14,169 nucleotides of DNA from a virus. Lineage: Duplodnaviria > Heunggongvirae > Uroviricota > Caudoviricetes. This document shows positions 6,813-8,219 of the stretch, piece by piece. The stretch spans positions 1-14,169 of the IMG/VR virus record IMGVR_UViG_2698536549_000025, one strand, 5' to 3'. How positions within the stretch are numbered: the stretch's first letter is position 1; every line of letters begins with the position of its first letter. The position numbers were made by a program, and so were the translations under genes. The notes under the pieces are model-generated. The model ran no database searches. It saw nothing but the letters and a program-made list of their open reading frames with translations, and was not told the origin of the DNA.

Positions 6813-6923
6813 GTAAATTATTTGTTCGTGGTTGTTCCACGTTGTTCACTGAGCGGATCGGCATATTTTACCCGAACTGAATCATGATTATTCTCGCCCG
6901 TGGTGCCAGGACGCTGGGGCCAC

Positions 6924-6971
6924 TTTCCCGCCTGTTAATGTGCTCGCCAATATTCATTACCAGGCGGGAAA
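6924..6971. promoter_or_regulatory. Perfect 11-bp inverted repeat TTTCCCGCCTG / CAGGCGGGAAA with a 26-bp spacer, upstream of the capsid gene
   Basis: Left half at 6924-6934, right half at 6961-6971; lies in the 300-bp region between the terminator and the capsid start. Confidence 0.4.
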
Positions 6972-7024
6972 ACGATCGGTGCGATTGCTGATTCCCTTAT
7001 GAAAAACGGTTGAGTTTTTGCCGC

Positions 7025-7061
7025 GTCCTGGAGTTCCTTACTTAACCCCAGGACTTTTTTT
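7025..7061 (+). promoter_or_regulatory. Terminator/attenuator-like hairpin plus T7 run ending 1 nt before the capsid ATG, sequestering the only Shine-Dalgarno-like AGGA
   Basis: GTCCTGG (7025-7031) / CCAGGAC (7048-7054) with a 16-nt loop, then TTTTTTT at 7055-7061; capsid ATG at 7062; AGGA at 7050-7053 sits in the 3' stem arm. Confidence 0.45.
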
Positions 7062-8219
7062 ATGCCGAGAATAATCGAATTACGCCAGCAGAAAACCGCC
7101 ATTAAAAATCAGATGCGCGACATGCTGGAGAACGCGGAAAAAGAAAACCGCAGTCTTAACGATGCTGAGGGCGCAAAATTTGACGAATTACGCGCTAAAG
7201 CTGAATCCCTCGATAAAGACATTTCCCGCCTTGAAGCCATTGCAGACGAAGAGCGCAGCAAGCCAGGTAAAAGCAGCCAGACCACTGACCCCGCAGAACT
7301 ACGCAGCTACATTCTGACAGGTGAAACCCGCGCATTAAGTACAGGCGTTCCCGCTGATGGTGGTTATACCGTTATCCCCGAACTGAACACCGAAATCATG
7401 CGAATGCTGGCGGATGAGTCCACCATGCGCCGCATCTGTACCGTGAAAAAAATCAGCAGCAACGAGTTTAAGCAGCTTGTTTCCGCTGGCGGTGCGACCG
7501 TTAACCACGGTGAAGAGGGTAAGGCACGCGAACAGACCAGCACCCCGCAGATTAACGAGGTGAGCATTAAGCTGTATCCGGTCTATGCGTACCCGCGCAC
7601 CACACAGGAAATCGTGGATTTTTCCGATGTGGATATCCTTTCATGGCTGACGGGTGAGATTGGCGACACCTTCACGGAAACCGAAGAAAGCGATCTGGTT
7701 GTGGGCGACGGTGACAAAAAAGCAAAAGGTTTTTTATCCGTACCCCGTGCAGAGAAGAACGACAAAGAGCGTGATTTTGGTACGTTGCAGGTAATTAAAC
7801 CTTCCGAATCTCTGGCGTGGACATCTGCGGACCCGCTGATCGACCTGAAATTTGCATTACGTAAAAAATACCGCAAAAACGCGGTCTGGGTGGTTAACTC
7901 CACGACGGCGGCAAAACTCCAGAAGGTGAAGAACGCGAACGGTGATTACATCTGGCGTGACCGTTTACAGGCGGGTGATCCTGATACGTTGCTGGGCCTT
8001 CCGGTCGAATATCTGGAGTTTATGCCTGATAACGTTATTGCCCTGGGTGACTTCAAACGCGGTTACTACATTGTTGATCACGAAACAGGTGTTCGCACCA
8101 GACCGGACAACCTCACAGAGCCGGGCTTCATCAAAATTTTCACGCAGAAATATTTAGGCGGTGGCGTGGTGGATTCGAACGCGATCAAGATTCTGGAACT
8201 GCCACAGGACGACGATTAA
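7062..8219 (+). CDS. Major capsid protein, HK97 family (with N-terminal coiled-coil delta/scaffold-like region)
   Basis: 385 aa. Charged, heptad-like N-terminus (ELRQQKTAIKNQMRDMLENAEKENRSL...), then a body and C-terminus (GDFKRGYYIVDHETGVRTRPDNLTEPGFIKIFTQKYLGGGVVDSNAIKIL) typical of HK97-fold capsids; followed by protease and portal. Confidence 0.85.
   Translation: MPRIIELRQQKTAIKNQMRDMLENAEKENRSLNDAEGAKFDELRAKAESLDKDISRLEAIADEERSKPGKSSQTTDPAELRSYILTGETRALSTGVPADGGYTVIPELNTEIMRMLADESTMRRICTVKKISSNEFKQLVSAGGATVNHGEEGKAREQTSTPQINEVSIKLYPVYAYPRTTQEIVDFSDVDILSWLTGEIGDTFTETEESDLVVGDGDKKAKGFLSVPRAEKNDKERDFGTLQVIKPSESLAWTSADPLIDLKFALRKKYRKNAVWVVNSTTAAKLQKVKNANGDYIWRDRLQAGDPDTLLGLPVEYLEFMPDNVIALGDFKRGYYIVDHETGVRTRPDNLTEPGFIKIFTQKYLGGGVVDSNAIKILELPQDDD

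Follow-up and report, generated by a model that had tools for sequence, protein, structure and literature searches.

How does a satellite that builds its own capsid control the gene from which that capsid is made? The question is raised by a 14,169-nucleotide stretch of viral DNA (IMG/VR record IMGVR_UViG_2698536549_000025, positions 1 to 14,169; hereafter the window, meaning the whole stretch that was analyzed), which, judged by its gene content, is a phage satellite of the capsid-forming phage-inducible chromosomal island (cf-PICI) type, ~14.2 kb long. Satellites of this kind build their own capsids and take only tails; they are widespread and able to cross species. In the window, a spacer of 249 nt separates the early and replication half of the element from the packaging module, and within this spacer, immediately before the capsid gene, lie nested inverted repeats and a hairpin followed by a T-run. 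An initial annotation suggested that capsid expression may be gated here by attenuation, antitermination or translational occlusion, or by an activator that binds the repeats. The analysis described below indicates that positions 6900-7061 are very probably a conserved, transcribed and structured RNA leader of ~160 nt that belongs to the capsid operon. It is further proposed, tentatively, that this leader acts in cis as an attenuator and translational operator with two states, setting how much capsid is made, or when, after induction.

The leader comprises three hairpins, a ribosome-binding sequence and a T-run.

6900-6923, + strand: hairpin 1 (hp1), GTGGT-G-CCAG-GACG-CTGG-G-GCCAC, dG -15.6 kcal/mol; holds the first CCAGGAC copy
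6924-6971, + strand: hairpin 2 (hp2), an 11-bp perfect dyad with a 5-bp upper stem, dG -22.6 kcal/mol, z = -5.6; abuts hp1
7025-7054, + strand: hairpin 3 (hp3), GTCCTGG / CCAGGAC with three inner pairs, dG -12.7 kcal/mol, z = -3.3
7050-7053, + strand: Shine-Dalgarno (SD) sequence AGGA, in the 3ʹ arm of hp3 and 8 nt from the ATG; the sole SD-like sequence in range
7055-7061, + strand: T7 run (U7 in the RNA), directly between hp3 and the ATG at 7062-7064; doubles as the spacer from SD to ATG

The 11-bp perfect inverted repeat is present exactly as first described, with arms TTTCCCGCCTG (6924-6934) and CAGGCGGGAAA (6961-6971), and it extends to 17 nt at 94% complementarity. Such a repeat is rare: an inverted repeat of at least 11 bp with a loop of at most 60 nt is found in 0.1% of shuffles of the 249-nt spacer. 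CCAGGAC occurs six times in the whole window against 1.2 expected, a count reached in none of 200 shuffles. Of the three copies assigned to this region, those at 7048-7054 and, inverted, at 7025-7031 are where they had been placed, but the first lies at 6906-6912 and not at 6908, an error of 2 nt. At the level of folding, the segment 6895-7075 has z = -4.27 on the + strand and z = -2.98 on the - strand, and the + strand fold is the stabler in 34 of 49 distinct leaders. Single-sequence folding returns hp1, hp2 and hp3 in 17 of 18 representatives, the L059 leader adopting an alternative fold.

Identity of the spacer is 95-100% across several hundred E. coli genomes, which alone says little; of 5426 complete E. 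coli genomes, 361 carry the same leader, O157:H7 among them. More informative sequences came from diverged capsid relatives, which were drawn from species-representative genomes, IMG/VR, GenBank phage records and a second E. coli haplotype, L059/L395 (L numbers designate lineages throughout). All enterobacterial lineages have one architecture in common, consisting of a boundary motif, lineage-specific repeats phased at ~10 bp, a pair of promoter-like hexamers, hp1, hp2, hp3 and the ATG. Pasteurella Pmp8 has no spacer at this place, and in Gilliamella only an hp2-like stem is left.

Within this architecture, hp2 holds its position yet varies in sequence in Klebsiella, Salmonella, Citrobacter, Erwinia and other relatives, so that the lineages contain ~17 distinct, unrelated arm pairs of 9-13 bp, many with a G-U pair on the + strand. 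A covariance model, R1, was built from one clade and misses the leader of the window type; at 32 loci (E 3e-10 to 6e-39) it locates a single leader in each element, on the + strand and ending at the capsid ATG, with no match in HK022, Pasteurella Pmp8 or distant capsid relatives. In the R1 alignment, 11 of 11 hp2 pairs are altered on both sides and 94.8% of the cells are paired. The whole structure is 96.7% paired, compared with 86.2% in shuffles and 36-55% in slid-partner controls; the alignment was fitted to R1 and so favors structure, but the slid controls are far lower. In hp1, the other lineages have GTGGC-A-CTCA-GACG-TGAG-CC-GCCAC, in which the GACG loop is the same and CCAG/CTGG is replaced by CTCA/TGAG. 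Three inner pairs are thus altered on both sides relative to the window's GTGGTGCCAGGACGCTGGGGCCAC, while across the non-E. coli group hp1 is almost invariant (GTGGCACTCAGACGTGAGCCGCCAC). One variant form of hp2 may be recorded here: at 2886-2946 of L003, and likewise in L272, L265, L263, L232 and L071, the 12-13-bp stem of hp2 leads into a three-way junction bearing two small inner hairpins, whose pairing is kept and whose sequence varies (GCUGC/GUAGC, GCUGUA/UACAGC, GCUGU/ACAGC).

A comparison closer to the window gives a footprint of the same kind. There are only two window-type haplogroups, the window type and the L059/L395 type, and identity between them is confined to the boundary motif with its repeats, the hexamers, the hp1 core, the hp2 arms, TTGCCGCGTCCTGG and the CAGGAC-T7/8-ATG segment. 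The hp2 loop, the hp3 loop and a 50-nt linker have diverged, and the TTGCCGCGTCCTGG block is invariant between diverged flanks. This footprint argues for selection on the hairpin arms, the SD and the T-run. Elsewhere, a 15-mer scan of viral contigs and metagenomes returned almost only chance matches, along with two true copies of the E. coli type; 10-11-mers of the leader recur in the rest of the element at chance level; and Rfam 15 gave no match at E <= 1 in positions 6800-7100 of the window or in the leaders of L074, L003 and L196.

Covariation, footprint and strand results together exclude chance, and they make it unlikely that the repeats are there for an activator to bind. The alternative at the level of DNA is that a dimeric protein (PerC-like, AlpA or encoded by the helper phage) binds the dyads and thereby activates or represses the capsid promoter. 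A PerC-family gene does lie immediately upstream, hp1 is a near-invariant imperfect palindrome in most lineages, and phased repeats that are probably protein sites are found nearby, at 6801-6851. However, the conserved promoter-like element precedes the dyads, 26-40 nt separate the two arms of hp2, which take some 17 unrelated sequences and are still complementary, the G-U pairs fall on the + strand only, and PerC is missing from several elements with the same leader. Because hp2 covaries, and because G-U pairs and folding energies favor the + strand, the comparative evidence identifies the dyads as RNA structure rather than an activator site; control by a protein bound to them as DNA is highly improbable, and this part of the initial annotation is not upheld.

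If the dyads act as RNA, where does that RNA begin? Positional conservation across lineages points to a pair of hexamers just upstream of hp1.

6867-6872, + strand: -35-like hexamer, TTTACC
6889-6894, + strand: -10-like hexamer, TATTCT; ends 5 nt before hp1

In every lineage the gap between the hexamers is exactly 16 bp and the distance from the -10-like hexamer to hp1 exactly 5 nt, the spacer sequence itself being variable. The -35-like hexamer of other lineages reads TTTACA, TTTACT or TTTTCT, and the -10-like forms are TATCTT, TATGTT, TATATT, TATAGT and TATTCT, with T-12, A-11 and T-7 constant. Moreover, a promoter scan of L267 and L196 calls the corresponding site (9/12) as the only promoter-like one in 450 bp. 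The capsid operon therefore probably has a weak sigma-70-like promoter of its own. The mRNA would then start at approximately 6900-6902, the first bases of hp1, which would make the interval 6900-7064 a 5ʹ untranslated leader.

Two other readings of this segment were considered and rejected. A leader peptide could be encoded by a 35-codon open reading frame (ORF) from the ATG at 6885, which lies upstream of the inferred start and is absent in L054, L267, L265, L263 and L005; a 10-codon ORF terminating within hp1 is seen in some relatives, and this is not conserved either. A sigma-54 promoter within hp1 (TGGCAC...) was dismissed by eye, its GG-to-GC spacing being wrong. As a separate observation, the 9-mer TGATTATTC, which holds a TATTC(C/T) -10-like hexamer, occurs both at 6885-6893 and at 1476-1484, upstream of alpA (chance expectation ~0.09). 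The latter copy adjoins a scan-called promoter, TTAACA-16-TATCCT (1449-1476), and the shared 9-mer could reflect a common promoter type or a common regulator.

The position of the start matters additionally for two segments just upstream that are complementary to the beginning of the capsid gene.

6886-6896, + strand: GATTATTCTCG, spanning the -10 hexamer; perfect 11-nt complement of capsid codons 2-5 (CGAGAATAATC, 7066-7076)
6858-6865, + strand: 8-nt complement of 7061-7068, ATG included

With low confidence, pairing of 6886-6896 with 7066-7076 could hide the start region, and then only on transcripts entering from upstream. Translation might then depend on the promoter used, as in T4 gene e and I-TevI: read-through transcripts would be masked at 7061-7076 by 6886-6896 and 6858-6865, and transcripts from the operon's own promoter, which would not contain the masking segment, would be translatable. 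Such an arrangement may coexist with a two-state leader. Besides the two complements themselves, it is favored by the location of the masking segment, exactly between the -10 hexamer and the inferred start, by the rise in opening energy from 12.3 to 19.4 kcal/mol when 30 nt of upstream sequence are added in the window, and by 7-10-nt complements of the promoter spacer to ATGAAAAA in L263, L005 and L252. However, the pairing was found post hoc between partners whose sequences the promoter and the protein code, respectively, constrain in any case; elsewhere, the parallels match a low-complexity T-run with an A-run and are missing from several lineages; natural variants at 6888 and 7066 are uncompensated; and the effect shrinks with 90 nt of upstream sequence. 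We consider promoter-dependent unmasking decidedly unlikely.

At its other end the leader runs directly into the capsid gene. The GTCCTGG/CCAGGAC stem followed by T7 abuts the capsid ATG, and the only SD-like AGGA lies inside the stem, both as originally reported. The dG of hp3, -12.7 kcal/mol, is comparable to that of the two terminators called by a simple scan in the window (-12.0 and -13.8 kcal/mol), and hp3 with U7 has the hairpin-then-U-tract form of an intrinsic terminator. The scan itself accepts loops of 3-8 nt and therefore passed over hp3, whose 7-nt arms are 16 nt apart. E. coli copies have seven or eight T residues in the run, and the L059 type has eight. In other lineages an analogous hairpin, TGGTTTC...GAAACCA, stands before the ATG with a dG of -12.3 kcal/mol.

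The 5ʹ arm of hp3 has a second possible partner, the apex of hp1.

6906-6914, + strand: 5ʹ strand of an alternative helix, CCAGGACGC, in the hp1 apex; pairs with 7023-7031
7023-7031, + strand: 3ʹ strand of the alternative helix, GCGTCCTGG (GCGUCCUGG as RNA); overlaps the 5ʹ arm of hp3

This alternative helix of 9 nt is 100% complementary (P ~0.002 in shuffles), and the two pairings are mutually exclusive: either 6906-6914 pairs with 7023-7031, or 7025-7031 pairs with 7048-7054. An equivalent competition is found in other lineages, in which AGACGTGA of hp1 has its complement, TCACGTCT, on the 5ʹ side of hp3. From a MAFFT alignment of all leaders, RNAalifold returns the long-range helix as the consensus, with four invariant GACG/CGUC pairs and two flanking pairs altered on both sides. 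With the alternative helix formed, hp1 would be open, hp3 precluded, and the SD, U-run and AUG unpaired. The L059 type has a weakened outer hp1 stem, and there the alternative fold is the minimum free energy (MFE) structure. The competing pairings suggest the anatomy of an attenuator or of a switch that sequesters the SD.

From these parts a working model can be assembled, which we hold tentatively. The terminator at 6781-6812 would halt transcription arriving from the upstream units, and a weak sigma-70-type promoter, preceded by a conserved upstream element, would start the mRNA at ~6900. The nascent RNA would fold into hp1, a 5ʹ-terminal stem-loop; hp2, a long helix conserved in structure and free in sequence; and hp3. 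In the default fold, in E. coli and Shigella, a fraction of the transcripts would stop at hp3 and U7, one base before the ATG, and the SD would be masked in the rest. If instead the hp1 apex CCAGGACGC paired with GCGUCCUGG, hp3 would be prevented and the SD, U-run and AUG freed. A hairpin at 8229-8250, after the capsid gene, would complete a capsid-specific expression cassette. The model supposes that hp3 with U7 terminates and that the two folds interconvert, and the trigger would be either a kinetic effect or a factor that binds the near-invariant hp1.

Several observations weigh against this model. The T-run is limited to the E. coli/Shigella lineage, including the L059/L395 type, and elsewhere hp3 is followed by CTCC-ATG or similar; termination can thus be an extra feature of one lineage at best, and not a conserved function. 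Opening the capsid ribosome-binding region is calculated to cost 9.8-12.3 kcal/mol, a middling value for the element's 20 genes. In the L195 type, hp3 leaves SD-like purines uncovered, and a few natural E. coli variants have uncompensated changes in the 3ʹ arm of hp3. The alternative fold costs 3-12 kcal/mol over the MFE in most lineages. Furthermore, support for hp1, hp3 and the alternative helix comes essentially from one two-clade split: neither hp1 nor hp3 varies in the large non-E. coli group, so that no covariation arises and hp3 is uninformative there. The promoter scan did not call the window's own site, which at 8/12 falls under the threshold. Finally, the case for a start site, for termination at 7061 and for switching is drawn from sequence, and a literature search for transcript data on the island EcCIEDL933 gave nothing relevant. 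The two proposals of the initial annotation that concern this region thus survive in part. Attenuation is supported by a terminator-grade hp3 with U7 and by competing pairings, though termination would be confined to the E. coli/Shigella lineage and not be a general function. Translational occlusion is suggested by the position of AGGA in an hp3 arm and by an alternative helix that exists in two sequence versions; in the L195 type the SD-like purines are uncovered, and the masking, as modeled, is real but not extreme, given the unexceptional opening energy.

The same observations can be read without any switching. In this account, hp1 and hp2 would shield an abundant capsid mRNA from 5ʹ-end-dependent decay by RNase E and RppH, or mark a processing site; a post-capsid hairpin would protect the 3ʹ end; and hp3 with its T-run would be a structured SD region followed by a U-rich spacer. 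The start of hp1 ~0-2 nt from the inferred transcription start in every lineage agrees with such a role, as do the constraint on the structure but not the sequence of hp2, which is what a purely physical role predicts, the 3ʹ hairpin directly after the capsid stop codon in every lineage, the unremarkable opening energy of the capsid ribosome-binding site (RBS), and a default fold that is much stabler than the alternative. What a static leader leaves unexplained is why both strands of the alternative helix are kept and switch jointly from clade to clade, why a near-invariant hp1 sequence stands beside a freely varying hp2, and why E. coli has a terminator-grade hairpin with U7-8 exactly at the ATG. 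A leader that serves stability or processing alone is a serious but rather doubtful alternative to the two-state leader.

The 3ʹ hairpin to which this account appeals lies as follows.

8229-8250, + strand: GC-rich hairpin with a short T-run directly after the capsid stop codon, called by the terminator scan; dG -13.8 kcal/mol

It is present in 17 of 17 lineages examined, Gilliamella included, with stems that differ (GGGGCTTAAAAGCCCC, GGGGCTTCGGCCCC, GGGCGCCC and others). The capsid gene is accordingly bracketed by a conserved 5ʹ leader and a 3ʹ hairpin, an arrangement consistent with a separate, abundant capsid mRNA and some read-through into the protease, portal and terminase genes. The hairpin also overlaps the annotated protease start at 8259; the true start is probably the second ATG, at 8274, which has GGGTGA before it.

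Two terminator-like hairpins around a capsid gene also recall the late operons of lambdoid phages. On that logic, either a ~160-nt leader RNA would end at hp3 and U7, like 6S RNA, or hp1 and hp2 would act like a put site, and processive antitermination would carry polymerase past hp3 and the post-capsid hairpin into the protease, portal and terminase genes. The window lineage does present a promoter, a ~160-nt leader, a terminator and late genes in this order; hp1 and hp2 are two abutting stem-loops of 72 nt at the 5ʹ end, resembling putL; the second terminator-like hairpin is found in all lineages; and AlpA of Pseudomonas aeruginosa is a Q-like antiterminator. Against this, hp3 lacks a U-run in most lineages, the short hp1 hairpin does not look like the long, bulged stems of put, and the leader matches no Rfam family. 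R1 found no match at E <= 1 in HK022 positions 20000-32000, the int-to-gene-O stretch expected to contain the early promoters, in which the put sites are unannotated; this is a weak test given that R1 misses the window-type leader. Moreover, none of the 20 window ORFs scanned against Pfam encodes a Q-family protein. In the P. aeruginosa protein the functional residues are numbered to 142 and an N-terminal segment forms a ring; the island AlpA, at only 62 aa, cannot hold both parts, and a Q-like role is therefore not simply transferable. Control by processive antitermination is improbable here.

A bolder form of the two-state proposal is that the leader is a new cis-regulatory RNA family, specific to enterobacterial cf-PICIs, in which hp1 is the receptor for a trans-acting signal that flips the folds. 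The hp1/hp3 fold may then be the off state and the long-range pairing of the hp1 apex with the hp3 arm the on state, and the signal may be free capsid or assembly protein (as feedback), an island protein or a host factor. This is unlikely on present evidence. If true, it would mean that a satellite times capsid production independently of its helper phage.

What delimits the control region on its upstream side? Three features mark a sharp boundary.

6781-6812, + strand: intrinsic terminator closing the ssb-perC unit, an AGCCGGA/TCCGGCT stem with a T-run
6811-6825, + strand: boundary motif TTGTAAATTATTTGT, at which similarity between lineages begins abruptly
6801-6851, + strand: array of five helically phased TTGT units, each approximately TTGTTnCACG; encloses TTGTAAATTATTTGT

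The terminator was correctly recognized as strong in the initial annotation: the scan calls it, its stem (6781-6798) is followed by TTTTTGTTATTTTTT, and the hairpin has a dG of -12.0 kcal/mol. Terminator-like hairpins also occur just upstream of the conserved region in other lineages, always 5ʹ of the promoter-like site. Upstream of TTGTAAATTATTTGT the cargo differs lineage by lineage, and from TTGTAAATTATTTGT to the -35-like hexamer the distance, counted from the sequences, is 39-41 bp in all lineages. By eye only, the boundary motif has a Fis-like G-N13-C pattern with an AT-rich center (CRP, Fis and IHF readings were considered). A further hairpin of this region should be noted in L003, L004, L005, L053, L071, L254-L256 and L272, in which a terminator-like structure (CCCCTGTCTCTGACGGGGG with TTTTCTTTATATTTTT) lies ~60 nt 5ʹ of hp1, between the phased repeats and the promoter, its T-tract forming the -35-like hexamer. 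The window has no hairpin of the CCCCTGTCTCTGACGGGGG type, its terminator standing upstream of the motif instead.

The window contains only two phased TTGT runs, at 6801-6851 on the + strand and at 1273-1322 on the - strand, the latter between int and alpA. Each has five units phased at 10-11 bp, and a run of at least four was obtained in none of 300 shuffles. The motif and array at 6801-6851 are likely a protein-binding site. The binder of the arrays may be the AlpA excisionase-like protein, the arm-binding domain of Int, or a Rep protein acting on iterons, the two arrays then being a pair on either side of repA like ori/crr of P4. The capsid-side array accompanies AlpA alleles of 50-100% identity, with or without RepA, and the int-side array is found only alongside int and alpA of the window type. 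P4 alpha-type iterons, TGTTCACC, resemble the TTGT unit. Two observations from other lineages belong here: a third TTGT array lies at 1412-1451 of L001, between roxA and int, and the arrays of L071 have a suggestive 'TTCAT' dialect in common, which bears on whether one protein serves both.

The genes on either side of the spacer establish what kind of element this is.

1-1230, + strand: arm-type tyrosine integrase (Pfam)
1595-1783, + strand: AlpA, a 62-aa helix-turn-helix protein (Pfam)
3926-5323, + strand: RepA helicase, AAA_25 (Pfam)
6089-6499, + strand: SSB (Pfam)
~6510-6758 (ORF 6390/6510-6758), + strand: PerC-family regulator (PF06069, E = 2.6e-34)
7062-8219, + strand: HK97-type major capsid protein, 385 aa (Pfam PF05065, E = 1.6e-61)
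3ʹ of the capsid gene, + strand: S78 prohead protease, portal, HNH endonuclease, P27-type TerS and TerL (Pfam)

All named genes are thus on the + strand, with int, alpA, repA, ssb and perC preceding the packaging module, and the same capsid start is annotated in RefSeq E. coli genomes. In the paper that defines them, cf-PICIs are ~10-15 kb islands with int, alpA, a replication gene and genes for an HK97-type capsid, protease, portal, connectors, HNH, TerS and TerL, and without tail or lysis genes. A RefSeq E. coli island located between roxA and phoQ (97.7% identity, 94% coverage, matching annotation) has no annotated tail or lysis genes. The window is assigned to the cf-PICIs because its gene content by Pfam and this near-identical island fit the published layout.

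The PerC gene lies directly upstream of the terminator and the probable capsid promoter. Because several islands that carry the same leader have no perC, PerC is probably cargo and not an activator of the capsid operon. Capsids of EcCIEDL933, which derives from an O157:H7 strain, have been obtained by overexpressing alpA alone; a helper-phage factor is therefore not required for expressing this operon.

Other features of the element were met in passing. Rfam finds a C4 antisense RNA at 2717-2804 (71.5 bits, above the gathering score), and a C4 a1/b1 target at 2600-2649 falls just below the gathering score and is overlapped by an isrK-like match. The segment 2600-2804 looks like an antisense immunity module of the P1/P7 type, upstream of ash/icd-like genes. 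The C4 RNA was considered as an antisense regulator of the capsid leader and rejected: by a crude method the duplex has -58 kcal/mol, against an element background with mean -60.6 and sd 9.6. Near the right end of the island, at 13814-13853, four GTGAC units are phased at 10 bp (GTGACGGAGA GTGACAACCA GTGACACACC GTGACAAAAA) and may be arm-type or excisionase sites at attR. Two GenBank phage records are satellites resembling cf-PICIs, LR881103 (L071, 'Escherichia phage vB_KppS-Ant', 16.5 kb) and OR544139 (L072, 'Pasteurella phage Pmp8', 15.3 kb); both have int, primase and a capsid module, with no tail genes save a doubtful 'tape measure' annotation. The first of these also disposes of the idea that the leader is a cos or packaging site. 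If the ends of the virion-derived record LR881103 are taken as the physical DNA ends, as the test assumes, the molecule starts 22 nt upstream of terS, so that cos would lie just upstream of terS, and the capsid leader is internal, at ~12.1 kb.

Within a limited literature check, the cf-PICI papers searched mention no promoter or terminator for the packaging module, and control of its expression therefore appears undescribed to that extent. The present analysis offers a control region that can be tested, with a probable promoter conserved in position, a conserved upstream element, a folded leader of ~160 nt with a possible switch, and a post-capsid hairpin. Since the same leader occurs in islands of the O157:H7 type and an alpA-overexpression system already exists for EcCIEDL933, experiments should be straightforward. 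The leader would also add an uncatalogued structured RNA to the few leader RNAs known from phages and satellites, and knowledge of it would be useful for engineering PICI-based delivery particles, for which capsid yield counts.

How, then, does this leader compare with systems whose mechanism is established? Like trp-type and pyrBI attenuators and riboswitch expression platforms, it places a hairpin and a U-run before the first gene, with the SD within the hairpin. As in attenuators, an upstream segment can pair with the 5ʹ arm of the terminator and is itself held in another hairpin, here hp1 (the 1:2 / 1:3 / 3:4 arrangement). Unlike them, it has neither a conserved leader peptide, its small ORFs not being conserved, nor a recognizable ligand aptamer; its U-run is lineage-specific, and its terminator ends directly at the ATG. 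The late leader of lambda (PR'-qut-6S RNA-tR') likewise has a promoter, a short leader and an intrinsic terminator before structural genes; the element differs in having no Q gene, in that most related lineages have no terminator at this place, and in that its terminator overlaps the first RBS.

A closer parallel in form is the put system of HK022, in which putL, of ~70 nt, consists of two stem-loops immediately downstream of its promoter. As with putL and putR, a cis-acting RNA of ~70 nt with two stem-loops stands at the start of an operon transcript and terminator-like hairpins follow downstream; moreover, the capsid module of the element is HK97/HK022-like. However, hp1 is short, the sequence of hp2 can vary freely, unlike put RNA with its triplex and conserved bulges, and the leader has an additional hairpin, hp3, that masks the SD. 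The put RNAs work on RNA polymerase by way of the beta' zinc-binding domain. With the leaders of T4 gene e and I-TevI it has in common that sequence just 5ʹ of an inferred late start is complementary to the translation start region, though the pairing here spans 170 nt and is well developed only in the window lineage. The leaders of ompA and T4 gene 32 resemble it in combining a stable hairpin within ~2 nt of the 5ʹ end (inferred in this case), a highly expressed gene and a 3ʹ hairpin; stabilizers of this kind need neither a conserved alternative pairing nor an invariant hp1. Belonging to no catalogued RNA family, the capsid leader would function like an attenuator or an SD-sequestering operator, with a partial resemblance to putL and to the 5ʹ stabilizers.

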